DNA of 64,000 nucleotides. It comes from Bilabrum cf. latius. Lineage: Eukaryota. Positions within the stretch are counted from its first letter, which is position 1. Each line of letters begins with the position of its first letter. Below are positions 30,001 to 52,465 of this stretch, in pieces. The DNA lies in the NCBI GenBank assembly GCA_965178125.1, contig OZ237735.1:930001-994000 (forward strand), in the 5' to 3' direction. Below the pieces are notes generated by a model. It made no database searches, was not told where the DNA came from, and worked only from the letters and a program-made list of their open reading frames with translations. Made by a program: the position numbers and the translations under genes.

Positions 30001-32666
30001 AGCCCGCTGCCCACTGTCACGCTCCCGCTCAGACCCGCCGTGGACTTGCCAGATACCACCGACACCGTGCCCGACGCTCCGGCAGACCCCACGCCATCCG
30101 CCGACCGCACCGTCACCAGCCCGCTCGTGGCCTCGCTGGCGCCCACGCCAGATGCCACGGACACCAGCCCGCCCGTGCTCGACGTGTCCGTCGACTCACC
30201 GCCGAACACGTACACCGACCCGCCCACGCCCGATGACGCCTTCGAAGACGTCACTGACACAGATCCAGACGCGCCCAGCGAGGACTCGCCGGCCGACAGC
30301 ACCAGCCATCCCACAGACCCGGACCCCACGTTCCCGGACTCCACCAACACATGGCCGCTGCTGCCCACGTGCGCCGCGCCGCTACGCAGCACCAGCCCGC
30401 CCGACGGGCCGCCGGAGCTCACGCCCGATCCCACCGTCACCGACCCAGACCCGGAGCTTGACGCAGACCCGGACTCCAGACTCACAGACCCAGACGACCC
30501 CTTCACGCCAGACCCAGATGACACAGACACAGACCCGGACTCGCCCACCGTCGCAGACCCAGACCCCACTGACACTGACCCAGACGTGCCCGACCCTGCA
30601 AGCCCGCTGCCCACTGTCACGCTCCCGCTCAGACCCGCCGTAGACTTGCCAGATACCACCGACACCGTGCCCGACGCTCCGGCAGACCCCACGCCATCCG
30701 CCGACCGCACCGTCACCAGCCCGCTCGTGGCCTCGCTGGCGCCCGCGCCAGATGCCACGGACACCAGCCCGCCCGTGCTCGACGTGTCCGTCGACTCACC
30801 GCCGAACACGTACACCGACCCGCCCACGCCCGATGACGCCTTCGAAGACGTCACTGACACAGACCCAGACGCGCCCAGCGAGGACTCGCCGGCCGACAGC
30901 ACCAGCCATCCCACAGACCCGGACCCCACGTTCCCGGACTCCACCAACACATGACCGCTGCTGCCCACGTGCGCCGCGCCGCTACGCAGCACCAGCCCGC
31001 CCGACGGGCCGCCGGAGCTCACGCCCGATCCCACCGTCACCGACCCAGACCCGGAGCTTGACGCAGACCCGGACTCCAGACTCACAGACCCAGACGACCC
31101 CTTCACGCCAGACCCAGATGACACAGACACAGACCCGGACTCGCCCACCGTCGCAGACCCAGACCCCACTGACACTGACCCAGACGTGCCCGACCCTGCA
31201 AGCCCGCTGCCCACTGTCACGCTCCCGCTCAGACCCGCCGTGGACTTGCCAGATACCACCGACACCGTGCCCGACGCTCCGGCAGACCCCACGCCATCCG
31301 CCGACCGCACCGTCACCAGCCCGCTCGTGGCCTCGCTGGCGCCCACGCCAGATGCCACGGACACCAGCCCGCCCGTGCTCGACGTGTCCGTCGACTCACC
31401 GCCGAGCACGTACACCGACCCGCCCACGCCCGATGACGCCTTCGAAGACGTCACTGACACAGACCCAGACGCGCCCAGCGAGGACTCGCCGGCCGACAGC
31501 ACCAGCCATCCCACAGACCCGGACCCCACGTTCCCGGACTCCACCAACACATGACCGCTGCTGCCCACGTGCGCCGCGCCGCTACGCAGCACCAGCCCGC
31601 CCGACGGGCCGCCGGAGCTCACGCCCGATCCCACCGTCACCGACCCAGACCCGGAGCTTGACGCAGACCCGGACTCCAGACTCACAGACCCAGACGACCC
31701 CTTCACGCCAGACCCAGATGACACAGACACAGACCCGGACTCGCCCACCGTCGCAGACCCAGACCCCACTGACACTGACCCAGACGTGCCCGACCCTGCA
31801 AGCCCGCTGCCCACTGTCACGCTCCCGCTCAGACCCGCCGTGGACTTGCCAGATACCACCGACACCGTGCCCGACGCTCCGGCAGACCCCACGCCATCCG
31901 CCGACCGCACCGTCACCAGCCCGCTCGTGGCCTCGCTGGCGCCCACGCCAGATGCCACGGACACCAGCCCGCCCGTGCTCGACGTGTCCGTCGACTCACC
32001 GCCGAACACGTACACCGACCCGCCCACGCCCGATGACGCCTTCGAAGACGTCACTGACACAGATCCAGACGCGCCCAGCGAGGACTCGCCGGCCGACAGC
32101 ACCAGCCATCCCACAGACCCGGACCCCACGTTCCCGGACTCCACCAACACATGGCCGCTGCTGCCCACGTGCGCCGCGCCGCTACGCAGCACCAGCCCGC
32201 CCGACGGGCCGCCGGAGCTCACGCCCGATCCCACCGTCACCGACCCAGACCCGGAGCTTGACGCAGACCCGGACTCCAGACTCACAGACCCAGACGACCC
32301 CTTCACGCCAGACCCAGATGACACAGACACAGACCCAGACGTGCCCGACCCTGCAAGCCCGCTGCCCACTGTCACGCTCCCGCTCAGACCCGCCGTGGAC
32401 TTGCCAGATACCACCGACACCGTGCCCGACGCTCCGGCAGACCCCACGCCATCCGCCGACCGCACCGTCACCAGCCCGCTCGTGGCCTCGCTGGCGCCCA
32501 CGCCAGATGCCACGGACACCAGCCCGCCCGTGCTCGACGTGTCCGTCGACTCACCGCCGAACACGTACACCGACCCGCCCACGCCCGATGACGCCTTCGA
32601 AGACGTCACTGACACAGATCCAGACGCGCCCAGCGAGGACTCGCCGGCCGACAGCACCAGCCATCC
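1..32666 (-). repeat. Coding tandem array, 600-bp unit (200 aa), about 54 copies in window, continuing past the left edge
   Basis: The sequence repeats with a 600-bp period and only a few SNPs per unit. There are six +90-bp insertions and two -45-bp deletions. Minus-strand unit: SSGSVSLESGSASSS GSGSVTVGSGVSSGG PSGGLVLRSGAAHVG SSGHVLVESGNVGSG SVGWLVLSAGESSLG ASGSVSVTSSKASSG VGGSVYVFGGESTDTSS TGGLVSVASGVGASEA TSGLVTVRSADGVGSAG ASGTVSVVSGKSTAG LSGSVTVGSGLAGSG TSGSVSVGSGSATVG ESGSVSVSSGSGVKG. Confidence 0.97.
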
Positions 32667-35600
32667 GACGCTTCCGGAAGCTGATGTTCCTGAGCTTATC
32701 GTGATTTCTCCAGAACGTCCTCTTGATACACTACCTGTTTGCATTTTCAGGCCGCCAGAGTTTCCTGATGTTGCATCGCCGCTTGTAACCGTTACTAATC
32801 CGGAATCTCCTGATGTTGATTCACCAGTTATTAGTTGGACTTGACCAGTCGTTCCTGCTAACGTGGTTCCAGTTTTTATTCTTACAGATCCAGAATTCGT
32901 GTTGCCGGAGTTGCCAGTTGAGACTTCTATTTGACCGGATTGACCTCGAGTTGAATCTCCTGTTGACAGTGATACGGAGCCTGAAGTAGCTGATGCGGTG
33001 CTTCCAATGGCTGTTCTAATATCAATGTAGCCGGTGCTTGACCCAATGCCGCTGGTACCGCTTGTAAGTTTTATGGAGCCGCCTTGGTGGACGCTTGAGT
33101 CGGTTTGGCCAGCGGAGAGCAGGATAGATCCCCCAGATCTCGTTTTGGCCTGACCAGCACGTACCTACACCTGACCGGCTTCACCATTGTTTGAAGATCC
33201 AGCTGACAGAGTTACCCAACCTGCATCACCGGATGCTGTATGACCTGTCGCAAGATACACTTGGCCTGAAGTCCCGTGGGAAACAGTACCAGTTGACACC
33301 TGAACTGATCCGCTGCCTGCTCCCGCTGCTGTACTTCCAGTCGAAAGATGAATTGTGCCAGAGAGACCGGTATCCGCAGATCCAGTTTTCAGAGAAATAT
33401 CCCCACTTGATGCAGACGTGCCAGTGACAGCCGGAGATCGAATGTGAACATGCCCAGAGCTGGATGACAGGCTGGCCCCAGACACCAAAGAAAGCAAGCC
33501 TCCAGTTCTGGCTGGTACATTGGAGCCAAGACTATTGCCGGCTTGAATATACATCAGAGCACCAGAGAGCTGCTCTGAAGTACCAGCCACTATGCTCATT
33601 GTACCTGCTCTTCTATCTGCTAGACCTGTGGTGAGCAAAGCGTTGCCACTATTGGAGTTTGATGAACGACCGGTCGAAAACAGGAGGTCTCCAGACGCTT
33701 CAACATCAATTTGGCTGCTTGGTACTGTTGACGCTCCTGACATAACACGAATGGAACCAGACACTCCAAGCGTATTATCACTTGACCTGATAGAAACCAG
33801 TCCTGTCGTACCAGCTTCAACCGTGCCCGAAGCAATTTCGACTCTCCCACTCATCCCTGACACCGTTGACCCTGACAGAACCGATACACTGCCACTGTCA
33901 ATGCTATTAGCTGCCACATTGGCAGACCTCAATTGTACCCAACCAGAGGTCGATACAGACCCAGCGCCAGAAACGATGTCAATGGCGCCCCCAACAGCGG
34001 TGCTGTCAAGGGTGTTGCCGCCTAGTACACGGACCATGGCCCCGTTACCTACCCCTGTTGAGCCAGGCGCGACGTCTACTCGCCCAGCTGAGCCCTACGT
34101 CGCAGATCCAGAGCCCAAGGAGACATCGCCAGAGTCCCCACCGGTTGAAATGCCAGACCCGATCTCAATTCCACCAGATGTGCCAGCCGCCGTGGAGCCG
34201 GACTAGATCACGGTACTTCCAGATGAAGTCACGCTACTGCTTGCAGAAAGAATACTCACATCACCGCTCGTGACAGATCCTTTCCCAGACAGAACAAGTA
34301 TGTTGCCACCTGAACCACTGGTGGAGTCTCCGGCCGAAACTGTAACATCCGCCCCCGCTCCACTGTCAGAGCTACCGGCAGCGATTTGAATAGAGCCTGA
34401 CCTGCCCCCTGAAGCTGCACCCGTTGCTAGATATAAGGTTCCAGCGTTGTCAGTAGCTGTACTTCCAGTGAAAATAGACACGTCGCCGGATTGTCCGGAA
34501 CTGCTGGCATCAGCAGACCGAATCGAGACATGGCCTGATGACGACGATGTACCGCCTCCGGAAGCAAGCGACAGCAACCCTCCACGGCCTTCGGCATGCA
34601 GACTAGCTCCTGCCCTGAGGCGAAGCTGCGCTCCATTACCGCTTGTGGAGCTGCCTGGAATCACATCAATGTCTCCTGCTTGGCCAAGCAACGGGGACCC
34701 AGTCTGCACTCTCACGCTGCCGGATGGCCCTTGCTGGGGGGTACCGGAACCAAGCATAAGCGACCCGCTAGCTGCTTGCTTCACATTCCCTGTCTGAATT
34801 GAAATACTTCCACTAACAACACTGGCAGCGGTTCCTGCAGCAGAAAACATGCGAATCGATCCAGTTATGCCATCACTGCTGCCGCCAGAGAGCAGAGACA
34901 AAACACCTCCATTTTGCGCAGTTCCAGTGGCTGCGCCGGCAGCAATAAATGTCGAAGAGCCTGTACCGCTACTGGAAGGGCCAGGGTTGATCTAGATCGT
35001 TCCAGCTGTACCCGAAGTTGGTGCACCGGTTCGAATCTTGACGTCACCGCTTCTGTACGAGTCACTGGATCCCGTACTGACATACACTGCACCAGAACTA
35101 GCACCCCTACTGTCACCAGTGAAAATGCTGACCGATCCAGACGAAGCTAAAGTTGTAGCCCCGGAATGTAACTCGATTGTGCCACTACCTGATCCTTCGG
35201 ACGAGCCAGACATCACTGCAATAGAGCCTGAGCTTCCTAGTTCCGTGTTTCCAGTCGACAACAGAATCTATCCTGTCTAGCCTTGCGGATTTGCGCTTTG
35301 CGTCCGAAGCAAAATGCTCCCTGTCTCAAACTAGGAGCTGGATCCTGTTAGCACGTCGAAGCTCCCCCCGCGAGAATTCGCTCCTCCTGTGGTACCTGGC
35401 CGCACAACAACATCCCCCCCATTTCCAGAGTCACCGAGTCCAACTTCAATCCGAATCGCTCCACCGGCACCAGCTGTTGCTGCGCCAGAAAACAACGAAA
35501 TAGCGCCAGAGGGTCCACTTGCAGATGTACCAGTTTCTAAAAGCATGTGTCCGCTTGACCCCCCAGGCCCGCTATTCTGCGAGCGAATACGAACGCTTCC

Positions 35601-38600
35601 AGAAGAAGTCTCAAGCGACTTCCCCGAAACTAGCTCGATGGTGCCACCTGCCCTTGTGCGCGCTGAGCCTGCTTCAACATAAACAGGGCCGCCTGAGTTC
35701 TGTCCGGATCCAGTAGCACTGCCGGCAACAATGCTCACACTGCCACCAGATATACCTGTCACGTCGTTAAGGGCACGTGTTGAGCCTGCCTGAATAACAA
35801 CGTCGCCTCCATCTAGAGTTCCATCACCTGAACCAACTGAAATGCTGATGCTACCACCAGATCCCCCAATTCCAGATCCCGAACGAAGCAAAATTTCTCC
35901 GCCACGGCCTCCGAACGAGTTCATACCGTCTCCACTCGATATATCAACAACTCCCCCAGCTGCTTGATTGCCCTGCGTTGATCCGGCAGATATTGAGATA
36001 GAACCGCCAGAATAGTCGGAGAATGGATTCATAGAATCTCCGACTGAAAGCGATATGTTCCCACCTCTACCCTGAGTTCCATCCGCTGTTGAGATGTTCA
36101 CGGCCCCCGTGTCACCAACTGCTGATTTTCCCGTCCGTAGTACGATATTGCCACTCTACCCTCTTAGTCCGCCATCAGATGATAACATTGAGAGAGAACC
36201 AGACTAGAACAGACTGCTCTTTCCACTACGGATAAGGATATCGCCACCGTCATCCCCTTCGGAATACCCTGCGTCCAACGTAACAGATCCACCTTTCTTG
36301 GAGTCAATCGCCGTGACAGGTCCGGCTACAATTGATATGCCCCCACCTCTTGCACCACTTCCAACGGAACCTCCACTACGAATTGTTACCTGGCTGCTGC
36401 GATCAGTTGATGCGCCATCGCCAGAGCGAATACTAATATCTCCAGCGCGAGAGCCACGGCTGGAAATACCAGTTCCAGTTCGAATGCTTATGTTTCCGCT
36501 TGCGCCTCCGAACGACAACCCAGTTTTGATGTCGACATTGCCGGATTCTCCATCGAGGCCAGAGTCGGCCGAAGCCAAAACCACTCGACCACTCGAACCA
36601 ACTATGCTAGAGCCACTTAGAATCGAGGTGTCTCCACCAGAACCCGTCAATGCGATTCCAGCAGCAATCGAGACGTTTCCCCCATATCCAGCAGATTCCC
36701 CAACGGACCGCCCGGCGAGGATCGTCACACCTCCTCCTTCTCGAGCTGAGTCGCCACTAAAAATCTCGACCTGTCCACCAGCGACATCTGCAAGTGTTGA
36801 ACCAACTTGAATTGAAATATTTCCAGGTCTACCAGCCTCGCTGCTTCCAGACGTGACCCGAACATCACCACCCTGTCCACCTTGAATATGAGTGGAGTTA
36901 CCAGCCAGCAGCTCAATTGATCCTCCAGAAGCCATGTAACCGGTCGTGGAACCCGGAGCGATCACGAAATCTCCAGCTGCTCCGCCCCCAGCGTCACCTG
37001 TTCCGACGCTCACAGCCCCGGATGATCCCGTTTCAGAGTTACCTGATCTGATCAACACATCACCAGAGTTGCCATACAGTGTAGGACCTGAGCCTATCGA
37101 AACCATGCCGGACTGGTCATCTCTCCCAGAAGCACCTGTATGTATCTCTACGTCCCCGCTGCTGCTTCGAGAGGAGTCTCCAGATCGAATCGAAACAGAC
37201 CCACCTTTGCTGGCAACAGAACTACCAGCAGCAATCACTGTATCCCCACCGGTACTGGACTCTGAACTCGACGCTGATCCGGCCAATATACTCACTGAGC
37301 CTCCTGTACCCTTGTATCCATCCGAATTTCCGGCAGAAACGAGTACAGAGCCAGAAGTAGCCGAATCTTCACCGGATCCGCCAGCTGCGACCGTAATGGA
37401 GCCAGAGACCCCGAACTACGAATCCCCAGACTTCACGTCAAGACCTCCTGACCCGTCTACAGCTGTTCCCGATCCAATCAGTACAGAGCCAGACTCGGGT
37501 GAAATCGCCGAAATGAGTGAAACATTCCCGCTGCGTTTCTCTATTGATGAACCACTTCTTAGAATAATGTCGCCGCCGTCGCTGGCAACTCCTCTCCCAG
37601 CAACGGCCTCAAAAACACCCCCGGTGTATCCAGCTCCAGCAACAATTCGAACAGCGCCTCCAGCATCAGAAGGTTTTTTAGGCTCCAAAACACTTCCGCC
37701 AGACAGCTCAGCAACACCTGGCTGCCCTTGGCGCACCGAGCCGACCTGGAGGCGCACGCTACCGCTGGATCCTCTGTCAGTGTCTCCAGATGCCACAAAC
37801 GTTGTACCAGTGTTTCCAAACCGAGTCGACCCTGACACTACTGAGACTGCCCCAGAGCTAGACAGTCGGTTCAGTTGATTTGATGTCCCACTTGCAGAGT
37901 GTAACAGCACGTCTCCGGACGTTGATAGTGCGCCGAAGGCCTCACCAGAGTGCATCGTGAGAGCACCGCCAGCCAAAGTGTCTTGGTGGGATGAGCCTGC
38001 GGATACTTTCACCATCCCGCCAACTTGACTGCTCCCCGCCACCACATTCACAGCACCACCTTGTCCACGACTAGACGAAGAGTTGCCGGCATGAACAAAA
38101 AGGGTACCTCCACGGATGTCCGAATCCAAGCTGCCCAGTGCAGAACCAGCGAAGACAGAAACATCTCCTCCAGATGCCTCGTAGCCGTTGCCACCAAGAA
38201 CTTGCACTGAACCGCCAAGTGACTAGATTCCAAGCTGTTCACTTCCACTGCCTGCTGCGAGCATGGCGCTACCTGCAACAGACACTCCACCAGAAGAATC
38301 AGGCCCGCCAACATCAGAGATGGAACCAGCTCGAAGTTCCACACTGCCTGCCTTTCTCCTGCCAGCTCCAGCGGATACGACCACATCACCTGAGGACTCA
38401 AAACCCTCCCCACTCGCAATGTGAACACTACCAGAGCTACCAGCTCTCGCTGGTCCAGACGATACCTCAACTCGACCCGTGCCCTAGCGCGCGCCATCCG
38501 ACCCTGCTGTACTGACGAATGCACGCCCCGAACCTGCTTGCCCTACTCCAGAAATTAGCATTACATCACCACCAACGCCACTTTCGGAAGAGCCACCTTT

Positions 38601-41600
38601 CATGGTAGCTGAGCTACTTTCGTCGGTTGTCGACAAACCAATAGAGGCGCCACCGATGCCGTTCCCGCTCCCGGCTTGCAAGTCGACGGATCCTCCCCTA
38701 ACTCCTCCCGGCCCTGCAGATATCGAAACGCTTGCGCCGACTCCAACTCTAGAGTTTCCTGCTGTCACGGTGACGTTGCCAGGATCCTCAACTGCATTCC
38801 CAGTAGAAAGTCGTAGCCCGCCCGATCCTTCGATTCCACTACCAGTGTCCAGGCTAACTGGTCCACTGCTTGACACAGAGGAAGCCGATGAAATGCGGAC
38901 TCCACCGGAACCCCCTGCTGCATTTCCTGAAACCATCACAGCCGAACCTCCCATGTCTCCTCTGGGTCCTTCCGCGTGCAGTCTAGCCCCTGTACCAGAT
39001 GGCGATGATCCACCTTCGACCACAGCACTGCCAGACCTAGACGCTAGCGAGAATCCACCTCGAACCACAACATTGCCACCATCTGACTGTTTTGATGTTC
39101 CAGCTAGAACGGATACATCTCCAGAGTCTAGAGTTGAGTCCCCAGATCGAACAACAATACCTCCTGACGCACCGCTTCCATTTCCAGATGTGATACTCAA
39201 GCTTCCGGATGGTGCCCCGCGCGAGCTTGCCTCCCCTGATCGGATCTGTACATCTCCTCCTGGCCCAGTTCTGCTGCTTCCAGCTGTCACCTCAACCATC
39301 CCGCCTTGCACTGCAGAACTATTCGAGTTTCCGGATAAAATTCTGATATCGCCTGGTACAACTCGCGAGTGAGCATGACTTGCTCGCCCATCGCCGGCTT
39401 GGAGGGTGATCGAACCAGCTGCGCCTCTTCTTCCAGTAGCAGAGCCCGTCGCTATTTCCAGGCTCCCGGAATCAGCATCCTTGCCGAATGCGTTCCCAGA
39501 AGAAAGAGTGACCTGACCTGTTGTGCTAGCGTTGCTTCCTGTCTGAATACTGAGCTACCCAGTCGAAGCGTTAGCTGCAGAGGCATCTGCCGTTCTAACT
39601 ACCACTGCGCCTGTCGCGTCGTTTGATGGTCCAGATTCAACCAGGACTTCGCCTCCACGCCCCGCGAGCGCCAGTCCGCCCCGAATTGCAACTGCACCTC
39701 CAATGCTCTGATTGGATGGCCCTGTTGATGCACCGCCACGAATGCTCACAGTACCCGCATTTGCAACTGCACTGGCACCACCGGTCAGGAATACGCTAGC
39801 GCTTCGATTCGATAGCGACTTCCCAGCTTCTAGCCGAATGCTTCCAGGGTGTGACGCAGCTCCAGTGCGGATTGATACCGCTCCACTTGAGCCCTTGTTC
39901 GAAGTTGTGTTGCCTGACACAAACGCAATTGAGCCTGTGTGCAAGTATCTACCGCCGACAGTGGATACTACGACGTTTCCACCTGTGCCATTAGACCTTG
40001 ATGGACCTCCCGTGAGCTTGGCGGTCCCACCTAATAGTGTACCGGCTCCGCCAGATACTTCTGCAAGTCCTCCCTGCAGTCCACCTCCGCCACGGATAGC
40101 AACTGCGCCCCCTGACGACACTCCGGATCCGCCGTGCACCGCAACAGATCCGCCAGATGCGTCCTTACTTGACCCTCCCATTACTTCGACCTCCCCTGCA
40201 TGCGTCTTGCCGGACCCACCAACCACTCGCACCGCTCCAGCTACTTCAACTGCATTCCCGGAACCAACTAAAACGTTACCAGTCGATGATGCGTTTGCAG
40301 ATCTCACAGAAACAGAACCGCTAGTACCCACTACCGAACCACCAGAGACGAGCTCGGCATGACCACCTCTGGCATCTGTGGACAGCCCACCAGCGACAAG
40401 TACTGACCCGGCAGACGAACCTGTTCCTGCGTGCCCACCGACTACATGTACGTGACCTGCAGAACCGTTCAAGTGCGCTTCGCCACCGCCAACTCTCACT
40501 GATCCGGCACTTCCACGGAATGAAGAACCTCCTTGCAACTGGACTTCTCCGCCAAAGCCAGACTCTCCGGTACCATTACCAGCATGCATATACAAACCTC
40601 CACTAGCACTGGCAGATCCAGATGAACGCAAATAAATGGACCCTGCATCACCATCGCTTGAGCCATTCCCAGACGAAATGTGAACATTACCACCTGTTCG
40701 CAAGCCAGATGATTTGGAGGCAGGAAGAAGCTTCCCTCCACGAATCCATACATCTCCTGCCTGGACACCTTGGGATGCACCAGCTTCGACCAGCACGTTG
40801 CCCTTCCCTGATGTCGACGTGCCACCGACTACTTCGACTGTACCAGGGTTCCGGGCAGTGCCGGTTGAGATTCGAACAGCACCGCTACCTGACTACGAAT
40901 CGTGCGACTTCAACTCTACTGATCCACTGGATGCTTCTCCTGACGTCGTGTTGCCTGAGACTATTGATACTGAGCCTCCCTGTACGTGGCCAACCCCAGC
41001 TGTAATACCAACTGATCCACCATGCGAATGTCCTGCACCTGGCAGTATCAAGACGTCCCCAGATGTACCATTCGATGACCCTGACGACACAACCACATCC
41101 CCAGATACCTCGCTGCCATTTCCCGATCGAAGTACGAGTTGTCCACTTCTTTGAGTGGTCAATGTAGACTGCGAGGATACAAACGACCCTGAAGTGATGG
41201 ACACGTCCCCAGTAGCGTTTCGCGAATTCGGCAGGTAGGAGAAACGCTTGTGCCTTGACTGCATCGCTGCAACAAGGTCAATCGCAATACGAATCTTGTT
41301 GACCTCGTGAAAATCCTCCAACTTAAACCCGGCTTCATCGAAGCTCATCTCGTCATTAACTGTGATATACTCTGGAAATACCTCGCGTACCTCTTGAGCA
41401 ATTACACCACGAACTGTCCTATCCTCAATACCACGTACCCGTCGCCAGACATCGGTGTACCGATATCGCTTCACTCGTAGCTTCAGCATGCGGTGCATAA
41501 GCTCGTCTTCATCCACAGATACAATGTCTTCCTTGATCCTTCTGTCGGATGGGGAAATCACTTCCACGAGCTCGGCCGGAACGTGAGAGAATATCTTGTC

Positions 41601-44600
41601 GCGTCGTACTCGAAATGGGATCTGGCCAGGCGGTGAGTCTTCGTGGGAGACGCGGTACTCGCCGTTGCTTCCGACGAGCGTGTCAATGTTCCGACCACTC
41701 ATCTACAACTGGCCGTCCTACGCGTTGACTCTAACAGCACCAGATCCTGCAACTTCGATCGAAGAAGAATTCGAGTTTCCAACTCGAACTTGTACGGCAG
41801 CATGGCCCTCATCGGTGCTGCCAGAGCCTTGGATTATGACAGCTCCGGCAAGTCCTGTGGCAGATGTGCCCGCAGCAATGCTTACTGAACCCCCACCGCC
41901 TTTCGTGCCAGCTCCTCCAACTATGTTCACCGATCCTCCCGAGCCGCCGTCACCGCCACTCACCGTGACCGATCCGGGAGTATCAGTTGCCGAACCAGAC
42001 GAAATCGAAACATCTCCTGAGCTCAAAGAGTCAGATTTTGATCGGAGCATAACAGAGCCACTGCTCCTGGCACCTTGCCCAGACTCGAGCAGAATTCCAC
42101 CACCCTATCCCAATTTCTACTGGCCACCGACGAGCTTGATCCGTCCGCCTGACGTTGAATCAGAATAACCTCCAGATACAACCACACCCCCACCGGATTC
42201 ACTGGTGGACGAGCCTGCAGAAATGGACACACTTCCTGCAAGACCATTGGGGGCGTGCCCGGCTGCAATTGCTATGTCACCCCCGGCTCCCAAGCTAGAC
42301 TAGCCTGCCGATACGCGGATGGTACCAGCAGATCCACTTCGTACAGACCTAGTCTTGATGCTCACTGCTCCAGAGGATGCCCCACCACCACTTAGCAGTG
42401 TTAGATCACCTCCTATTCCATTCATGTGTCCGTCGCCGCCTTCAAGTGATACGCGACCCGCCGTTCCATTCAACTCAGTGCTATTGCCACCACGGAGCAA
42501 GACTGCGCCGCCCGCTTTGCCGCCGCTGCCACCTTGCATTGCAGCAGAGCCACCTTGCCCAACCGTAGCTGTCGAATGCCCAGCTTGCAGGGAGATCCCT
42601 CCACCGGTGCGAGCATTGCCAAGGGCGTCGCCAGATCGCAGTTCAACAGCACCGGCACTGCCCATGGCTCCACTGACGTTGCCTGCAGCGATTCGCACTC
42701 GACCAGAATGGGCTGCAGTCAAACGGCTGAATGCCTGCCCTGTGCCAATGTCAAGGTTGCCAGACGACACGCTAGCAACATCATCGATGGGGGCGCTGCC
42801 TGTTTCGATTTGAATCGGCCCCGATTCAGCAGATGAGTGTTGATCTCCGGTGCTAAGCGGGGATCCAGATCGAATTGATACGAGTCCGGCTACTTGAGTG
42901 CTATTTCGACTAGTGAACACTCCTCCCGACAGTATTCGGACCGCACCGGACTAGCCATCTGACCCCAGTCGAGAGTTACCCCCTCGAATTTGAACAGACC
43001 CTGCGACTCCACGCCTGTTTGATCCTGTCTGCAGTTTGATCGACCCTGAAGAAGCCTTGCTTGACGAGAGTTCACCAGATTCCGCAACAATGCTCCCAGT
43101 GCCACCGGAGGATCCTTCCAGAGCTGGCTGAGAACCGAGATGAACAGAGCCTGAATCAGCATACTTGGACCCACCTCCGCCACGTACTACAATGTTTCCA
43201 CCGGGTGACTTAGAGTGCTGGCCGGCGGCTCCGCCTTGCAGCTCAACTTCACTACCTCCAAACTGGCCTCCGGAAGCACCAGCCCGAAGCCTAATCCCAC
43301 CGCCAGCACCTTGCTCACTGGACCCTGATACCAACGAAATTGTACCCGCAGTGCCTTCTAGTGAGGCTGACCCTGTGCGGATCAGAGCGCTGCCGGTGCT
43401 TGTCTTGTGATCAGCAGTCTGCGGGGCGGGAGCGGTCTGTAGCACGACACTTCCGGATTCAAATCCCCTTCCAAGACCACTGGTGATTGAGACAGTCCCA
43501 CCTATACCAAGCCCCTTGCCAACATCACCACCTCGAATGCTTACGCTTCCAGCCGAGGCTGCAGCCGGAACTGACCCAAAGGCTGCAAACTGGGGGTCAA
43601 TGCCAGACACTGCGCCTCCACTGACTGAGACTGTACCGCCTGAATGGCCTGTGGGAGTTCCAGGCTACGCAATACCTGCTCCTGCAGAAATCTCAATGCT
43701 GCCGCCGCTAGTACTCTTGGTTGCCAAGCTAGGGGGAACGACTGCGTCGCCAGCCGCAAGGCTGACACCTGCTCCGGTGTGTGCGACTGAGGCCCCCGCT
43801 CGAATATTGAGGCCTCCTGCAGGCTTCAAGTGCTATGCTTCAGCCATTGGTACCGCCCCACCGTTGGCTACCTATGCAAAGATGGGAGATGATCCAGTCA
43901 CAATGTTGATGGCTCCAGAGCCACGAGCACCCGCTGCCCCGGAACCCAACGTGACGCTTCCAGAAGATCCAAGCTTGCCAGCGTTCGATGATCTTATGAC
44001 AACTCGGCCAGACTACCCATTTCGACTGCCACCAGATCGAATTTCAACGGAACCGCCACCATCGCCTGTATCAATTCCAGGCGATGTGTCATCTCCTGCA
44101 TGAATGGCCACAGACCCACCCCCAAGTGCCCCAGGCCCTGCCGCAAGAGATACTGAGCCAGATCTTCCATGAGCAGACTCTCCTGATCCAAACACTGCGC
44201 TGCCGGAGGGTCCTCCGGAGAGCCCGGATCTTACGTCCACGTCACCCGACGCTTGAGTCGTTGTCTGGACGGCACTCCCAGATGAAATTCGAACTAGGCC
44301 CGAGCTTTGGGAAAGTTTTCCCTCAGCAGAACCTGATACAATGTCTACGGAACCACCACGACCGCCTCCACGCACGCCTCCAGCAACCACTTTGATTGCT
44401 CCGCCTGATGCAGTGGCCAACCTCGAGGCCTGGCTGCCAGCGAGTATCTCTACACCACCCGCATCGGTTCGCGATGAAATAGACGGTGACCTGGCATGAC
44501 CTGCAGCGATTCTGACCCCTCCAGCTTTGCCATGCGTGCGAGACTGCGAGTCGCCGGCAGAGAGCAACATACTCGCACCAGAAGAAACTGCTGAACTGCC

Positions 44601-47600
44601 TCCCACAAGAGAAATATTTCCAGCCAGTCCGCTTGCAGCGCCACTTGCGATGGAGACTGACCCGCTCTCCAGCTCAGCACTCGCAGACCCAAGACTGACG
44701 TTGCCGCTGGCGCTTGAGTTTGATGCACCAGATAAAATGCCAACTGAACCTCCAGACCCGCCAGAGCTAGAACCAGCTTCTACACGAACAGAGCCGCCCG
44801 TTCCATGAGCAGCAGAACCAGCAACAACTTGCACACTTCCAGCAGCAGATTCGTGGAGGTGCGACAAGCCAGAGCTATTCCCAGCCTTGATACTTACGTG
44901 ACCTCCATTGCCATGGCTTGGGCTTAAACTAGATCCTGACTCTAGAGTTAGATCCCCAGCCTTAGAACCGTCCCCAGTTGAATCTCCGGAAGCAACACCA
45001 ACGGCTCCAGAAGACTCTCCGCGGCCACTGCCAATTCGTACCAAACCGCTGCCGGAGGTCTCTGAGCTGTTCCCCGTTTGGGCAATCAATGAACCACTTG
45101 GACCTTCTTCTGATCCAAGTCCAGTACGAATCTGAATATCTCCACTCTTGCCCTGCATCTGAGCACCATCGGGAGTCAGGACCTCAACATTTCCCGAGGA
45201 GCCCCCAACCTTGCCGCCGCCGCGCCCACCTGCCAGGCGAACAGTGCCACCTACTGAGGAAGAGGTGGTAGGCACAGCGCCCGCTTCAATGCGGACGTTT
45301 GCCCCAATATGAGAGAGACTTCTCGTCTTTCCCGCCCGAATTTCGATCTGCCCAGCAGACGCTGCAGCAGCTACGCCGGATCGGATCCCCACTGGGCCGC
45401 TACTACCGGCGGTTGAAAGGCCACTTTCGATGTCTATTGAACCAGACTCTCCGCGTGAGCCGCCATCTTGCGTTCTTATCCTAATTCTACCACTAGACTG
45501 CTGCCGCGAGGCTCCAGAAAAGATCGATACATCACCGCCAACACCCATGGTGGCATTGCCACCGGATATGGCAACTACTCCACCTTGGTCCAATCGGTGG
45601 CCTCCAAACGACTTGCCAGCTGAGATTTCGACGCTACCTCCGTCTCCTCCGTCGGCAAACAAGTCGCTGGTTCCATCACCCGCAGAAATTCGCACTGCTC
45701 CGCCTGACCCACCGTCAGCTGCGTCATCTCCAGCTCGCATTGACACTGATGCACCAAGTCCGCTTCTACCATCGCCAGCTGCAATGCCAATGCTTCCTCC
45801 GGCTGCATCGCTTGCACTTGATCCTGCTTGCAAGGCAATAGAGCCGGCATCGCCGCTCTGCGCACTTCCTGTCCGAATCTAGATACCTCCAGAGGACCCA
45901 GCGATCCCGGAATCGGCCGTGCTCATCTAAATGGGACCTGACGTGCCTCCAACTGATGCGCCAGAAGACACTAGTACGTTTCCACCGATTGCATCGGGAG
46001 ACGTAGACTTCGTGGTCCCTGCGGATAGCAAGAGAGACCCAGCGATCGGTGCATTCCCAGCGCCGACATTAATCGCCACGTCACCGGCCCGACCATTCGT
46101 AGAATCACCAGTTGAGATGGTGACGCTGCCAGAGTTGCCCAGATTGGACTTGCCGGTTCCAACCAGCACCGTGCCGCTAGCACCTCGAACACCTCCATCA
46201 GCGGTAAGCAGACCGACACTTCCAGAATCGCCTCGTCTCGATTCACCAGAGATCACGAGAGCATCGCCGCCGGCGCCTTCGTCAGCATCCCCACCCTCTA
46301 GGCTGGCATCACCTCCACGATCATTGTCCTGGCTGCGGCCGAGACTGGAGCCGCCGCGTACTACGACCCTGCCTCCGTCACCGCCATCTACAGTAGACGT
46401 TGACGACCCTTCGCCACCGGTGAGAAGTACGTCACCGCCGGCATACCCAGCGGCGGTAGACCTCCCACCATGCACCCTAACCCTCCCTCCATCGTTCTCA
46501 TCGCCATCTCCAACGGCAAGAAGGATATCCCCGCCAGAACCTCCCGCTGCGGGCCCGGACTGTAGGAGGATGTCGCCCGACTCTCCGTCAGACGACTAGC
46601 CCGTGCTGAGCACGACGTCACCTGAGACGCCCGAGGTGCCCGCATTGGCTGTTCCGATCCGCATAGACCCGCTGCTGCGGGAATCAGACGAGCCAGAAGA
46701 CAGCTCCAGCGAGCCACCGGCACCCCCGCGAGCAGATCCAGCAGCAATTCGAACGTGGCCTCCGGTGTCTGCTGGGTTCATTCCAAACGAGTCACCAGCG
46801 TCCAAAATAACATCACCGCCATCCCCGCCGTTCCCTGGATCCTGAGATGTTCCGTCCCCAGCACGAATGTGGACAGCACCGCCCTGGCCACCAGGTGAGG
46901 CTGTAGTTCCGGAAGCAATGGTAACCTGGCCACCATCGCCAGTGTCTCCGGCTCCAACTGAGACACGGACATCTCCACCAGCCCCACCCTGCGATGGACC
47001 TGACTCGATCGACACTGAACCTGATGGCCCATTTGAGGCGATACCACTCCGAGCAGAGATGCTTCCAGATGCGCCCGCGGCAGCGTCAGAAGAGCGGATC
47101 TGCAGGTCCCCTGAGGCCTGTCGGGAAGATGCCCCGGACTCGATCACCACCTGACCACCCCTGTCATTGGCAGATGATCCACCACGCAGAATAGCGTCAC
47201 CACCTGCACCACCTCCAGAGGCATCTCCACCTTCAAGCACGGCGCTTCCACCAGCCGCAGTCGCAGCTTGCCCGCTCGCAGCACCTCCGGACAGCACCAG
47301 CGGTCCTCCCGCGGCTCTAGTTCCCGATGCAGTCCCTCCAGTGACACTGGCAAGTCCGGCCTGCGACGCGAGATTGCCTGACGCTGACCCCGCATTGAGG
47401 CTCAGCCGAGATCCGTCTCCGGACTGCAAGCCGGTCTCGCCGACAGATATGTCTACAGAGCCTGCCTGGCCCTGCTAGGAGTGCCCCGTAGAGAGTGACA
47501 AGGATCCCGAACGACCACCTGGTGACTAGCTAGACCCAGAGCTGATAGTAACCTCTCCCGAGTTGCTGCTGGGCGACGCAGGACCGGCAGCTGCACTTCT

Positions 47601-50083
47601 GAGCACCAGCCTGCCTGATGAACTACCGCTGCCGGCACCGGCGCCGCTGGCAAGCTCTACAGACCCGCCGTCACCTGACAGGCTTTGGTCCAAGCTATCC
47701 CCAGCGCTGACAGTGACTGATCCTCCATTTCCAGATCCAGATGACCCTGACGATACCGACACATTGCCTGCAGCCCCATGCCTAGCATCTCCAGATTGGA
47801 GCACGACGTGTCCAGATGCAGCGCCGGACGCGGTGGCGCCACCAGATGAAACAGACACGGTCCCACTCGAGGCCGTCGCGTTGCCGCGAGTGCCACCATC
47901 GCTGGACGTCAGCACAACACTGCCGCTCGCTCCCATAACAGAACGCCCTGAAGCGACGCGAACGTTTCCGCCGGTTCCACCGACGGCCTCACCGCCCACA
48001 ACACTTACGTCGCCACCTGTGCTGGCCTCGCCTCCTCCGAGCCCACTGCCTCCTTGAAGCAAGAGCTTGCCCCCGGATCCTCCGCTGGAGGTCGCCCGCG
48101 AGGTTCCGTCTCCGCCAGTGATGGAGACTGCTCCTCCAGAAGCACCTGGAGCGGCGGCGATCCCACCGCTCACCGACACGGCAGCCCCATTGCTGGAGCT
48201 TCCTGACTCGCCGGGGCCGATGCTCACTGCCCCAGCCTGACCGTCAGTGGCTTGTCCTGTCGACAGATCCAGCGCGCCAGTTAGAGCATCTTGGCCGCTG
48301 GCGGACCCGGTGGAGAGCTGCACGTCCCCCGTCACCTGCCTGTCCTGTCCCGCGGCGGGGACCACGCGGCTGCTTGCGCTCGCAACCGACACACTGCCGG
48401 ACTGGCCAAGTTGCGATGCGCCAGACTGCAGCTGGATGTCGCCGCCATGTGCCTGGGGCGCCACCGCAGAGCCGGCCACCAGCACTGCGTCGCCTCCTCC
48501 CTCGATGGACTCCGAGGCACCGGCGCTCAGCCGAAGCTCCCCTCCCTTGCCCGCGCCGGTACCGTGGCTGCTGCCAGCAGCGATGGTGACATTGCCTGCG
48601 GTACCGTTTCTCGTACTGCCGCTCCCAACTAGTACGGAGCCGCTTGAGCCAGGCCCGTCCTGCTCTCCCGACTGCAGGGACGCATCGCCTGACCGGACGC
48701 CTCCTTGACCGGATCGCAGGAGCAGCCGGCCTCCAACGTACGTTCTAGATCTTCCACCGGAAACAAGAGCTTCTCCTCCGGTGCCATCTTCAGCAGCTCC
48801 GCCTGCCACGTGTACTGGGCCTCCCAGACCAGCGCCACCATGCGTGGCAAGTCCGCTGGATGCTCCTCCTTCGATGGATACCCTACCTCCAGAGCCCCGA
48901 TCAACGCTGGTACCAGATCCAGCTAGAATTGACACGCTGCCACCAGCACCTGCTGTTCCGCTGTCGTGGCCGCCCTGTATGGAAGCATCGTCGGCCGAGA
49001 CGACCTGCACTGTCTCGTCATTCGCAACTATTCCAAAGTCTTTGGCGGCTCCTCCGCTGTCCAAGGTGCTTCCCTTAGTTGTTAAGGAACCTCCTCCAAA
49101 CTTTGGGTCGCTGACAACGGAAAGATCTCCGACAACCTTGCTTACTGCGCTCGATAAATGGCAAATCAAACTCGCGGAATACAATGCAGTGCACGTCCCC
49201 GCCGCGTGGCCAGGTAAACTACCCTTGACGACTCACTCTGCACAAAGGTATCGGGGCATGGAACATCGAATACCGTGCCCCGACAGTTCGCTCCAAGGGC
49301 ATCAGAAACTGTCATGCAGCTGCTCTCTGATGCGCACCACGCGCACTCATCTTGGCCGGCGCAAGATTCGCACCCAAGCAGGGAGTACTCTTCGCACTCC
49401 GGCTTAACTGCGAATAGCCAAAACAAAACAAAGCATGTACATTGTATGCGACGTGCCTGGTTCGAAGTGTTTATCGTGCACTGACAGCAACAACTGCGAC
49501 TGGATTCTGACGCATCGACTCACTCGGGCATTCTTCATTGTCGGAAACAATATCGGGGCATTCGGCCTCATCCGCCTCATCTATGCACTACAATGTGGCG
49601 ATGCAAAATGTGCACCCCTCCTGTGTGCACGGACTGCAGGCCCCGACAGCATCCCTGCGACGCGAGAATAGCCACAACGAGAACCGAATCAGCTTACTTT
49701 TGAGTCATACTGGCCTGAAAACAAAACAGATTATCCTGAATTAACATTACCATGCCAATGTCACTGAATCTGGGCGAAAACTGGCCTCTTGAAGTGTTTC
49801 GACGCTTGAATCTGGCAGGCCGACACTCCGGGGATGGAATCAGAGTTCTGAAACCATGCTAGAGCTTATAGTCATCCGTAAACGAAGGCTACTAATTCAA
49901 CCGTAGTCTCAGCTGGATGCTTCTACCCGATTTATCCAGGAGTTTGTGTTCAATACGTTGCCTGTCTCACCAGTAGTCTCCGTCGATCGTGTGCTGAGAG
50001 CATGAGGTAGTCGCTACCGCTGTACCAGCTACCAGAATCAACAAACTGAAGTTGTACATTTTGCACAATTGGTGCTTGTACAT
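1..50083 (-). CDS. Giant secreted Gly/Ser/Val-rich repeat protein (>=16,519 aa in window, 3' end beyond window): signal peptide, 2 PSI-like modules, ~15-aa beta-coil repeats, internal Peptidase S74 (ICA) domain, 200-aa tandem array. Model: join(50083..49971, 49654..49524, 49407..49237, 49144..<1) with TAG read as sense
   Basis: All 16 minus-strand Gly/Ser ORF fragments from 33165 to 49184 share one frame and each ends in TAG. Reading the gaps by hand gave 13 more TAGs and no TAA/TGA. From 33164 to 1 the frame has no stop at all; the ORF track missed it because it leaves the window. Three GTGAG..CGCAG introns join the upstream exons in phase. The start may be ATG 50083 or 50059. Confidence 0.9.
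41244..41552 (-). other. Peptidase S74 / intramolecular chaperone auto-processing domain (MYRF-ICA-like) within the giant protein
   Basis: PSDRRIKEDIVSVDEDELMHRMLKLRVKRYRY...GVIAQEVREVFPEYI...LEDFHEVNKIRIAIDLVAAMQ matches the S-D-x-R-x-K, YRY, GVIAQEV..P and VNK motifs of MYRF and tailspike chaperones (recognised from memory). Putative catalytic Ser at 41549..41547 and Lys at 41534..41532. Confidence 0.9.
49145..49236 (-). other. Intron 3 of giant gene (92 nt)
   Basis: GTGAGT...GCGCAG; the phase-1 join puts exon 3 in frame with the 49-kb exon (FVQ-I-SKVVGDL). Confidence 0.8.
49237..49654 (-). other. Two PSI/plexin-like cysteine-rich modules (exons 2-3 of the giant gene)
   Basis: CSPCTQEGCTFCIATL*CIDE...CP and CEEYSLLGCESCAGQDECAWCASESSC...C...CP show the CxxC-x4/5-Cx(W/F)C-x5-C spacing. 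One in-frame TAG at 49590..49588. Confidence 0.7.
49408..49523 (-). other. Intron 2 of giant gene (116 nt)
   Basis: GTGAGT...T-rich tract...TCGCAG; the phase-1 join gives CP-I-KPEC. Confidence 0.8.
49655..49970 (-). other. Intron 1 of giant gene (316 nt)
   Basis: GTGAGA...TCGCAG; the phase-2 join TG|G gives Trp in DGDYWDAVGAC. Confidence 0.6.
50012..50083 (-). other. Predicted signal peptide of the giant protein
   Basis: MYKHQLCKMYNFSLLILVAGTAVA-TTSC: basic N-region, hydrophobic core and an A-V-A cleavage motif. Confidence 0.65.
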
Positions 50084-50431: not shown

Positions 50432-52465
50432 TCAACCCAGCTTGCCTGACAATGCCTCTGCCCCGCGTGTCCGTCTACCGGGATTTGGCTCCGTACCGGG
50501 CCGCTGCGGCAATCTGGTCTCCTCCACGGATGAAGCCGCCAGCACAAGCACACCAAAGCAAGCAGACATCGCGGTCGTTGCTTTCTCTAGCGCTCCATCA
50601 ACAGGCCTCGATGACGTGCAGCTCAGGATTGCAAACCCGGGCTCCATCGGAGCCGGCAGGTGCACCGCCAGCTCCCCGGCCCCAACAACTGGATGACCGG
50701 CGTGCGTGGCACCATCTGAATCTGCATCGACGCGATCTCGACTTCCAGTCCGTGCCCCTGAGTCTGCACTACGCGTCGCTGCTGCCTTTCCAGCCCCTGT
50801 CCTGGACGGCCCCGGCAGGGGCAGCAGGCTCAGAACGTCTGTTGCCTAGCCCGCCACTGTTGGCACTGGAGCCGGCTTGGATTGCGAAGCAGAGCCAGCT
50901 CCCCGGTCCCGATCTTGCACCTCGCGCCCCGCATGCCCTCGGTGACTATTGTTCCCATGGACATGGGCACTTGCACTGCCGAGCGGTGCATCATGCTGCT
51001 CCTCGGGACCGGGACCGGCCCCACCGACCAGCCTCCCTCGCACGTGCGACAGCGCGTCGGCCTTGCCCACTGGGACCTCCCCGACGAACACCAGCGTAGC
51101 CGCCGCGGACAGAACGTCCGTCGCCACCGCCACAGGGAGGCACCCCTGAGTCGCTGCCGCCTGCAGCGAGCCGTCCTCCTTCGCCCTGGCGAGCACTTGC
51201 AACGAGACAGCCCCGCGGTCCTTGGGCCCCAGCCCGGCGCAGCCAAGAAGCCAAGCAAGCGCTGCAAGAGGGCGCTCGTGCCGGCACAACTAGCACATAT
51301 GCCTGCCGCGCACCCCGGCAGCTTCAAACCAGGCCAGCCAGGGAACAAATGCGGACGACCTGGGAAGGTCAGGCACAGGCTCCACCGTGCTCCAATCCGA
51401 AGGGGCGGGCCGCGGTCGCGTGCCTGGTCGTTGCTACTGCGCGCGGCTGTGTCTGTCGCCCACGGAAGCGCCCGTTCCCTCTTCTTGCCCGACACGGCGA
51501 TGCCCTTCCTCTACCAGTGGTCGCTCCGATCGGCCTGCTGGACCCGTGCCAGTGGGCGCGACGGGTCTTCGGAGGTCCTGTGATTCTGCGGCAGAGCTCC
51601 CTTCGGCTGCCCGTGGTGTGGTCGACAGCTGACCTTCGCTGGGTGGTTTCTCGCTACTCCTGAGTAGCAAAGCTCCGCTGGGATCGCTGGGATTCAGCTC
51701 AAGGAGCCTCAGCATCCACAGGCAGACGTCGTCCGCGGTCCACAGCCACAGTGGCTGTTGGAGCCTCGCGATGTCTCTCATGAGTCGACCGCGCCGGACC
51801 CCTGCGATGTCCATGGCTGCAACCTGGGACGGTGCATCGCTGGGATAGTGGGAACCGGTGGCCTGCGCCTCGATGCGGCGCCTGCGGTCCTGCTCTGCCT
51901 TCAACCGGTCGGCAGCGAGCCCCTCCAGCCGTCGAAGCACAAAAGAGCCTTCGATTCCTGGGACCGGAACCACATCATCAGCATGATCTAGTAGAGCAAT
52001 TAGCACTGGGTCGCCGTGAAGTCTTGCTTCGGCCCGGGGTGTCGTTCCTGAGTCTGCCAAGGCATCCGGGTCCGCGCCGTGCTGCAGAAGCACCCGGACT
52101 GTTTCCACCGAAGGCCTTAGACAAGCGAGCAGCAAAGGAGTCTGCCGTTTTCCATTGCGAACATCAGCGAGCGCACCAGCGCACAGCAAAACCCTGGCAC
52201 ACTCAGCGTGGCCCCGTCCACTCGCTAGGTGCAACGGACACTCGTGAAACTAATTCTCGCGGTTCACACTGGCACCGTTCGCTAACAAACGCTGCACTTC
52301 CGTAATACTACCCATGTATGCTGCTTGCCAAAGGTTGGAACATCGCTTAGTCTTCACAGCTGGCATGCTATTGGGCTTTGAAAACGTAGTTCGCAGTCGT
52401 CCCATTTGTGCCACAGTGCGCTGCAAATTGGTGGAAGGGTAGGGATGATGCAAGAATGCACTCAT
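50432..52465 (-). CDS. Ankyrin-repeat protein (~650-680 aa) with a SAM-like WTADDVCLW motif and a low-complexity C-terminus
   Basis: LWQAAYMGSITEVQRLLANGASVNREN*FHECPLHLASGRGHAECARVLL...QTPLLLAC...LLQHGADPD. Four ORF pieces in one frame are joined by TAGs at 52250, 51434, 51290 and 50846, and the frame ends in TGA at 50432. The exact start ATG is uncertain. Confidence 0.8.

Follow-up and report, generated by a model that had tools for sequence, protein, structure and literature searches.

We analysed a 64,000-nucleotide stretch of contig OZ237735.1 from Bilabrum cf. latius (assembly GCA_965178125.1, positions 930,001 to 994,000 of the forward strand), hereafter the window, in whose positions all coordinates are given. 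Its minus strand carries a giant gene for a Gly/Ser-repeat protein that contains, within the chain, a Peptidase_S74 (S74) domain, also called the ICA domain; beside this gene lie genes for Vps26, a GT41 O-GlcNAc-transferase-like protein (OGT), an ankyrin protein and a leucine-rich repeat (LRR) protein. ICA domains are known in two settings: at the C-terminus of phage tail fibres, from which they are discarded, and within a single eukaryotic family, MYRF, in which the domain releases a transcription factor. The protein described here and its relatives represent a third setting, apparently unstudied: giant, putatively secreted eukaryotic fibre proteins in which the domain lies in mid-chain and is sometimes repeated.

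Results

An ICA domain within a giant reading frame

One minus-strand frame is open from 49232 to base 3, where it runs off the window, and contains 29 TAG codons (33165..47528), no TAA and no TGA in approximately 16,400 codons; upstream of 49232 the same frame holds 166 stops of all three kinds. With 29 TAG codons in it, the frame can encode one protein only under a code in which TAG is sense, and we read it as Gln on the grounds given below. Counting through the exons places Pro and Ser of the predicted cleavage site at residues 2670 and 2671, with 13,849 residues after the Ser up to the window edge. The numbering and the at least 13,800 downstream residues proposed by a first-pass annotation of the window, which had been made from the letters alone, were thus reproduced with our splice model.

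The S74 segment with its preceding Pro occupies 41244-41552 (minus strand) and reads PSDRRIKEDIV...RGVIAQEVREVFPEY...HEVNKIRIAIDLVAAMQSRHKR, in full PSDRRIKEDIVSVDEDELMHRMLKLRVKRYRYTDVWRRVRGIEDRTVRGVIAQEVREVFPEYITVNDEMSFDEAGFKLEDFHEVNKIRIAIDLVAAMQSRHKR; the SDRRIK, GVIAQEV and VNK motifs from which the first-pass annotation had proposed a self-cleaving chaperone are all present in this translation. The domain proper, as delimited by Pfam, PDB and Foldseek searches and by an AlphaFold2 (AF2) model, extends over 41241..41549, from Ser2671 to approximately residue 2773. A 269-residue stop-free stretch (40893-41702) matches the Pfam profile PF13884 (Peptidase_S74) with 51.1 bits (E 1.6e-13) over profile positions 1-56 of 58. 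With a curated cut-off of 22 bits this match is far above chance level, and it was found again, with 46.8 bits, in a longer translation, which bears out the S74 assignment of the first-pass annotation. Four PDB sequences were matched by phmmer at E<=1, the best being the ICA domain of MyRF (7dc3; E 6.1e-12 over 104 residues), and the phage chaperones 3gud and 8hqz reached approximately 13 bits only.

The AF2 model covers 221 residues and was computed from a family alignment of 40 rows (A1); it has a mean predicted local distance difference test score (pLDDT) of 83.5 and a predicted TM-score (pTM) of 0.71, with pLDDT values of 91-97 across most of the domain. When the model was compared with the PDB by Foldseek, three chains of 7dc3 came first (E 1.4e-8, TM-score 0.72 on the target, root-mean-square deviation 2.1 A, 34% identity), followed by endoNF (3gw6) and then by the neck-appendage chaperone 3gud and the T5 fibre 4uw8; the matches at E<=0.001 were the 7dc3 chains and one 3gw6 chain. 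We therefore regard the identity of 41241-41549 as a Peptidase_S74/ICA domain as virtually certain.

The domain occurs in a single copy, no further copy having been found in the window by six-frame phmmer, and PF13884 is the sole Pfam family in the 18 kb of frame scanned (31002-49184). A scan of the main exon over its 16,380 in-window residues, with 60-residue sliding windows, yielded a single island with a G+S+A+T fraction below 0.40 (residues 2582-2812, nucleotides 41124-41816), corresponding to the domain and a neck that precedes it. Neck and domain together have a K+R+D+E fraction of 0.355 and a G+S+A+T fraction of 0.174, compared with 0.084 and 0.650 in the body of the protein, so that the earlier description of a main globular, charged island holds.

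The neck comprises approximately 45 residues before the cleavage site (41550..41684, minus strand; ...FRVRRDKIFSHVPAELVEVISP). Relatives align across it, its residues K36, S39, P42, V48 and P51 are invariant in alignment A3, and AF2 predicts it as short beta strands with pLDDT values of 80-91. At its other end the domain closes with an 18-residue helix (VNKIRIAIDLVAAMQSRH; 41244..41297, minus strand; model residues 136-153), which in the AF2 model appears as the counterpart of the start of the alpha4 trimerising coiled coil of MyRF, at approximately half its length.

The predicted catalytic centre

The predicted scissile bond, Pro2670-Ser2671, is encoded at 41547..41552 (minus strand), with the codon of the nucleophile Ser at 41547-41549. 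This Ser aligns with position 587 of MyRF, which is Ala in the S587A crystal construct, and Lys2676, the K of SDRRIK (41532..41534, minus strand), aligns with MyRF K592. The Lys lies five residues past the Ser, as the predicted general base of a Ser-Lys dyad, and is invariant in alignments A1 and A3. In the part of the MyRF structure report available to us, S587 and K592 form the dyad and are equivalent to endoNF S911 and K916, the reaction centre is lined by Y615, Y617, F621, I637, F657, I663 and F666, with R590, Q639 and K671 close by, and the 36-residue alpha4 coiled coil (N670-K705) drives trimerisation (PMC8326128).

We paired these residues with the window protein by counting along the PDB phmmer alignment with 7dc3, using a numbering in which Ser52 is Ser2671. 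S587 and K592 correspond to Ser52 and Lys57, R590 to R55, Y615 and Y617 to Y80 and Y82, F621 to W86, I637 to I101, Q639 to Q103, F657 to F126, F666 to F131 and K671 to K136; the VNK of the window protein is the counterpart of V669-N670-K671. Most of these cleavage-centre counterparts are invariant or nearly so in alignment A1. The Ser-Lys dyad implied by the intact motif of the first-pass annotation is thus borne out, together with its surroundings, and judging from these residues the domain is probably cleavage-competent.

A family of relatives with internal domains

A full HMMER pass with the 191-residue query over 1.84 billion representative sequences returned 766 proteins at E<=1e-3, of which 115 matched at E<=1e-10 and 31 at E<=1e-30. 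The best matches are 35-59% identical over the whole query, including the neck of approximately 45 residues, and cover query residues 2-190. Named members are hypothetical proteins of Phytophthora infestans, P. sojae, P. capsici and Aphanomyces euteiches, and one of them, P. infestans PITG_01491, carries the UniRef label 'Peptidase S74 domain-containing protein'. MYRF orthologues were reached only at E values of approximately 1e-10 to 1e-8; they made up six of the 20 proteins scanned with Pfam, with NDT80_PhoG in all six, S74, MYRF_ICA and mostly MRF_C2. A protein-cluster search with the oomycete homologue P0010 found S74 clusters only, viral and oomycete, and searches for longer proteins gave only five matches and one match, a result of little weight in either direction, since the index is crowded with Gly/Ser words. 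In the relatives whose sequences were read, Gly/Ser repeats flank the domain on both sides. The window protein has all the features that define the family: the neck (..SHVP....V..P/SD.RIK, the slash marking the predicted cut), the ICA core, a helix-to-repeat junction and two-sided Gly/Ser repeats.

From 156 stored proteins, three phage loci and the window we extracted 105 domain copies, 83 of which keep both Ser and Lys. A quick maximum-likelihood tree of these copies (LG+G4, 121 columns, rooted on the three phage rows) places the window together with the oomycete sequences in a clade of 83 rows with a Shimodaira-Hasegawa-like approximate likelihood ratio (SH-aLRT) support of 99, and MYRF in a separate clade of nine rows with a support of 97; its rows are the best matches to the window query only, and with so few columns its deep order is not resolved. 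As far as this phylogeny, which the first-pass annotation had proposed, can tell, the domain is not a MYRF orthologue and belongs to a separate eukaryotic clade, which we call 'fibre ICA'.

A metagenome scan added 37 loci with 45 domain copies. Behind 35 of these copies, on 28 loci, at least 100 residues of G/S/A/T-rich open frame follow; the frame of one copy, that of L040, a weak relative, closes after at most 60 residues and not at a contig end, and the remaining nine are cut by contig ends or have flanks less rich in Gly/Ser. An internal position, which the first-pass annotation had called unusual, is indeed so by comparison with phages, where four of four fetched tail-fibre genes end 48-180 nt past the domain match, but it is the rule in the eukaryotic family. 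In the 2,635-residue protein P0277, for instance, the domain lies at residues 534-652.

Several relatives have more than one domain. P0003 has three and P0006 two; metagenome locus L008 has three (Ser-Lys, degenerate and Ser-Lys), and L010, L013, L014, L016, L017 and L018 have two each, with Ser and Lys intact and approximately 1,900 residues between them. The nucleophile Ser is replaced by Ala or Asp, or the copy is degenerate, in the second and third copies of P0003, the second copy of P0006 and the middle copy of L008, and the subtypes 'SPSDRRIK' and 'QYSSDxRIK' can co-occur in one protein. A near-identical two-domain gene, 38-39% identical to the query, is found on contigs of nine metagenome records (L010-L018); evidently one widespread planktonic eukaryote carries this member of the family.

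The metagenome relatives reach 71% identity. The three closest, L005, L006 and L007, all keep VISPSDRRIK, with domain identities of 71% for L005 and 53% for L007. L005 aligns co-linearly with the window protein in 3,818 columns, in which neck and domain are 80% identical (124/155) and the arms 42.5% (302/710 and 1,204/2,828); by this difference the domain is the most constrained part of the protein, under purifying selection.

The repeat arms

The N-terminal arm of the main exon (41685..49144, minus strand) comprises approximately 2,490 residues rich in Gly, Ser and Ala (24%, 18% and 12%, respectively) with a 15-residue period, and the proximal C-terminal arm (32745..41240, minus strand) consists of diverged 15-residue Gly/Ser repeats over approximately 2,830 residues and opens with a junction (...HKRFSYLPNSRNATGDVSITSG) that is conserved in relatives. 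The autocorrelation of V, I, L, M and F peaks at lag 15 in both arms, and neither arm matches a Pfam family within the scanned 31002-49184. Repeats on both sides of the domain, as described by the first-pass annotation, are therefore present.

The distal C-terminal arm (3..32744, minus strand, continuing off the window) consists of approximately 54 near-identical super-repeats of 200 residues, some of 230. The period was taken from k-mer spacing, which peaks at 200 (8,330 pairs); Tandem Repeats Finder found nothing at a score of at least 500, the 600-nt period being above its limit. There are 54 Trp residues, one per unit. Ser, Gly and Val make up 30%, 25% and 16% of this arm, its GC content is 0.70 (0.80 at third codon positions), and it is essentially devoid of Gln (no CAG and one CAA), which accounts for its lack of TAG. 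The opposite strand is also open over a huge frame (2-32704), most likely as a by-product of the stop-poor composition of the repeats. No transmembrane-like segment was found in the in-window body of the protein, the best 19-residue mean hydropathy after the Ser being 1.56, in a Gly/Ala/Ser strand, and the 13,849 in-window residues after the Ser hold no second non-Gly/Ser island.

Exon structure and N-terminus

Introns of the form GTGAGT...CAG can be read from the sequence upstream of the long exon, and contigs identical to the window from a public sequencing run (X5) join 49144 to 49237, 49407 to 49524 and 49653 to 49970, all with GT..AG on the minus strand, which fixes the exons. These three joints are the signature of spliced mRNA, and they show transcription of the 5' part of the gene in a run whose kind (DNA or RNA) is not on record, none of the listed runs being recorded as RNA.

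Exon 1 (49971..50083, minus strand) runs from the ATG to the GT donor, the 49653 to 49970 joint being cut at +1; it begins MYKHQLCKMYNFSLLILVAGTAVATTS... and encodes a signal-peptide-like N-terminus with a 12-residue hydrophobic core, FSLLILVAGTAV (mean Kyte-Doolittle hydropathy 2.4). An X5 contig spans 50021-50277, reaching approximately 190 nt upstream of the ATG at 50083, and would, if RNA, suggest a 5' untranslated region of at least that length. Exon 2 (49524..49654, minus strand), bounded by the joints at 49653/49970 and 49407/49524, encodes a Cys-rich module (DAVGACSPCTQEGCTFCIATLQCIDEADEAECPD...) with one TAG codon and no Pfam match. A mini-exon guessed at approximately 49700-49720 was dropped, as the spliced contig joins 49971 directly to 49654. 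Exon 3 (49237..49407, minus strand), between the joints at 49407/49524 and 49144/49237, encodes a PSI-like Cys-rich module (KPECEEYSLLGCESCAGQDECAWCASESSC...). Its match to the PSI profile PF01437 (18.4 bits, E 0.0028) lies below the cut-off of 23.1 bits, so that of the 'PSI-tipped' segment of the first-pass annotation the Cys-rich, PSI-like module at the N-terminus stands and its assignment to PSI is sub-threshold. Exon 4, the main exon, extends from 49144 onward (minus strand, joint 49144/49237) and off the window edge.

Genetic code and neighbouring genes

Genes with in-frame TAG codons lie at 50432-52465 (minus), 52527-55664 (plus), 55865-57040 (minus), 57528-61511 (plus) and 61557-63998 (plus). 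Four neighbouring genes can be read through only with TAG as sense and terminate at TGA or TAA, and TAG makes up approximately 0.5% of codons in the giant gene as in its cellular neighbours. The non-repetitive part of the giant gene contains 63 CAA, 77 CAG, 29 TAG and no TAA codons. Among close relatives of Vps26 (P0157, P0159 and P0158; 81-97% identity), the first TAG site is Gln in both that cover it and the second in all three. These sites, the codon counts and the ends of the neighbouring genes suggest that TAG is read as Gln and that TAA and TGA are stops, as in NCBI table 15, which is most likely the code of this genome. Compared with PDB homologues, the TAG sites of Vps26 and OGT align with N, K and P, which alone do not resolve the meaning of the codon; the TAG positions of the arms scatter over many residues of L005, as Gln positions do, and are uninformative. 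No tRNA was found in a search of the window, so that no tRNA with a CUA anticodon is visible there.

L005 and L007 are open across their whole contigs (11.3 and 6.7 kb) with 25 and 10 in-frame TAG codons, respectively, and no TAA or TGA, and L006 and L008 have no TAG; from the pattern of the first two, the recoded lineage has relatives in environmental data that share its code. In the part of PMC5304391 available to us, UAG decoupled from UAA is first reported as UAG=Gln in Iotanema spirale and as UAG=Leu in a rhizarian, and reassignment of UAG alone to Gln is rare in nuclear genomes. The UAG=Gln code is a separate observation, possibly more surprising than the domain.

The Vps26 protein is approximately 50% identical to its nearest named relatives, from ochrophyte algae and animals. 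The match of its frame (55865-57040, minus) to the Pfam profile does not start until position 67 of 275, and its close relatives have approximately 60 extra N-terminal residues, so that an upstream exon is probably missing from the simple open reading frame (ORF).

Discussion

Proposed mechanism

We consider it likely that the catalytically intact ICA domain at residues 2671 to approximately 2773 of this secreted Gly/Ser beta-repeat protein of more than 16,500 residues acts in both assembly and self-cutting. Trimerisation, cleavage, the direction of folding and an extracellular fibre function are proposed here by analogy, starting from a domain whose identity, fold, conserved catalytic centre and internal position, as well as its gene model and the existence of its family, are matters of observation. 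Three chains would be put in register by ICA trimerisation through the C-terminal helix and collars, as in endoNF and MyRF, and trimerisation would nucleate the folding of the upstream three-chain repeat arm. The downstream arm would probably be registered as well, given the conserved helix-to-repeat junction that follows the domain. In the assembled trimer, Ser2671, activated by Lys2676, would attack the Pro2670-Ser2671 bond, and the cut would leave two pieces: a PSI-headed N-terminal fibre of 2,670 residues and a C-terminal part, starting with SDRRIK, of at least 13,849.

Several findings weigh against this proposal. The MYRF_ICA profile (PF13887), which the first-pass annotation had named as a check beside Peptidase_S74, has no match to the domain at E<=1. 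The C-terminal helix has only 18 residues in the AF2 model, compared with 36 in MyRF, where it is the main driver of trimerisation. As for the arms, AF2 applied to a 345-residue segment (39858-40892), with an alignment of 28 segments from the protein's own arms as input, gave no usable monomer fold (mean pLDDT 47.2, pTM 0.35) and only short strands approximately 13-15 residues apart; we infer the beta-helical, three-chain nature of the arms from their repeat pattern and the kind of domain that lies between them. None of the X5 and X7 contigs lies over the domain, the bins at 41248-42219 being empty, and the 3' end of the gene is beyond the window, where more domains or an anchor are possible. 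Finally, the Ser has been lost in 22 of the 105 domain copies, often together with the Lys, so that the family tolerates non-cleaving domains and cleavage is not obligatory for function.

Alternative explanations

The last point leads to a different role, in which the domain is a permanent, uncut trimerisation knot that registers the three chains and stays in the mature fibre as a node between its arms. The copies without the nucleophile, among them the second and third of P0003, the second of P0006 and the middle one of L008, suggest that the fold is useful without proteolysis, and the helix runs directly into the conserved junction and more repeats, as a two-arm node needs. However, the window copy keeps the Ser, the Lys and the residues of the MyRF cleavage centre, its three closest metagenome relatives all keep VISPSDRRIK, and the dyad is retained in 83 of the 105 copies. 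For the window protein we therefore think an uncut node unlikely.

An endogenous viral fibre gene, from a polinton-like virus (PLV) or a giant virus, would place the protein outside the cellular repertoire altogether. PF13884 is ubiquitous in PLVs of most eukaryotic groups, where, in the part of PMC12220804 available to us, it is C-terminal on modular fibres of up to 3.9k residues, and the best matches in IMG/VR are contigs of giant-virus metagenome-assembled genomes (MAGs). This origin is nevertheless very improbable. Three GT..AG introns are spliced out of the gene, TAG serves as sense in approximately 0.5% of its codons, as it does in the flanking cellular genes for Vps26, OGT, ankyrin and LRR proteins, and Pfam scans of the submitted window ORFs yielded neither a capsid nor a polymerase family. 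Moreover, the best of 50 viral loci, on a giant-virus MAG contig, is only 31% identical (E 1e-13), none of them exceeds 40% identity (reached over 71 residues) or extends over the neck, whereas metagenome relatives reach up to 71%; the C-terminal position of the domain in PLVs (PMC12220804) also differs.

MYRF-type regulated release, by which a signalling or transcription-factor fragment would be freed from a membrane-anchored remainder, recommends itself in that the MyRF ICA domain is the closest solved relative and is also internal. We hold it to be extremely improbable here: no NDT80/PhoG or other Pfam family lies upstream and MYRF_ICA is unmatched, the signal-peptide-like N-terminus would put the domain in the secretory lumen and not in the cytosol, the 13,849 in-window residues after the Ser contain no transmembrane-like stretch, and the six MYRF orthologues form their own clade apart from that of the window.

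That translation really ends at the TAG codons, leaving the S74 domain as a small ORF standing alone or as a pseudogene remnant, for which it can be said that under the standard code the domain sits in a 269-codon stop-to-stop frame, has a next to negligible chance of being right in the face of 29 TAG and no TAA or TGA in approximately 16,400 codons against 166 stops of all kinds upstream of 49232, four neighbouring genes that need sense TAG, Vps26 TAG sites that both align to Gln, and the same pattern over the whole contigs of L005 and L007.

Possible fibre polyproteins

Returning to a self-cutting assembly domain, relatives with two or three domains per chain would have precursors that are polyproteins cut into fibre segments, a picture favoured by the conserved junction and by the two or three intact domains of several relatives. 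Tentatively, and with less confidence than would make it our expectation, we suggest that the giant protist precursors are 'fibre polyproteins' in which ICA stations register, fold and sever arms, so that one gene of more than 50 kb could yield several trimeric fibres, with Ser-less copies as permanent nodes. Such a system might be the cellular equivalent, in eukaryotes, of the way in which phages assemble their tail fibres; it would occur widely among plankton and oomycetes and could be a source or side lineage of the MYRF ICA domain.

Significance

The domain family, its chemistry and the automatically labelled oomycete fragments are already known. What appears to be new is a family of giant secreted Gly/Ser-repeat proteins in eukaryotes whose ICA domains lie inside the chain, sometimes several to a protein, and make up a separate clade beside MYRF. 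No literature on such a family was found in a search that lay outside subscription journals, and neither PITG_01491 nor PHYSODRAFT_500080 was met as a locus tag in the full texts searched. Should the domain act as proposed, it would explain how proteins of more than 16,000 residues are folded and sized into three-chain fibres, and their precursors would be polyproteins. Through the family, close relatives of the MYRF ICA domain also become known from eukaryotic proteins other than transcription factors, which bears on where animals and amoebae obtained that domain. As it spans hypothetical proteins of oomycete plant pathogens and abundant sequences of marine plankton, its role, be it in a cell coat, in hairs or in adhesive threads, is worth finding.

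Comparison with known systems

The chaperones of phage tailspikes and fibres (K1F endoNF, 3gw6; the phi29/GA-1-type neck appendage, 3gud; the T5 L-shaped fibre, 4uw8/8hqz) share with the window domain the Pfam family, the fold and the dyad, and they too are joined to long, trimer-forming fibrous repeats. Sequence similarity to them is marginal, with 13 bits to 3gud and 8hqz, and only seven of 50,697 phage records matched the domain (30-40% identity, best E 1e-6). In phages the domain is the last part of the protein and, once cut off, is discarded as a small fragment, whereas in the window protein, which lacks this architecture, at least 13,849 residues follow it.

The fibres of PLVs, virophages and giant viruses resemble the window protein in their eukaryotic setting and in being very long, modular and equipped with PF13884; according to the same part of PMC12220804, however, their domain is C-terminal and fused to laminin-G, collagen, adenovirus-fibre or baseplate modules. 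The window gene, in contrast, is spliced and lies among cellular genes, and no close relative of its clade was found in the viral contigs searched.

The ICA domain of MYRF and MrfA (7dc3; PF13884 and PF13887) is the closest solved relative by both sequence and fold. The two have in common the Ser-Lys dyad in S-D-x-R-x-K, the same aromatic and hydrophobic residues of the cleavage centre, an internal position and a short beta stalk or neck before the cleavage site. They differ in that the window protein has no NDT80/PhoG domain upstream (Pfam scan of 31002-49184 and of exons 2 and 3), which all six MYRF comparators have, and in that its domain falls outside the MYRF clade, without a MYRF_ICA match and with the modelled helix of 18 as opposed to 36 residues. 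The in-window part of the fibre protein, whose gene has its 3' end outside the window, shows no transmembrane helix; its domain is predicted to enter the secretory pathway, while that of MYRF is cytosolic, and is flanked on both sides by thousands of Gly/Ser-repeat residues.

The named proteins of the family are those of oomycetes (PITG_01491, PHYSODRAFT_500080, a P. capsici model and a partial Aphanomyces euteiches sequence). Although these are short gene models of 390-859 residues, probably fragments, and use the standard code, they are 46-51% identical to the window protein over neck and domain, share its SDRRIK motif and two-sided Gly/Ser repeats, and belong to the same 83-row clade.

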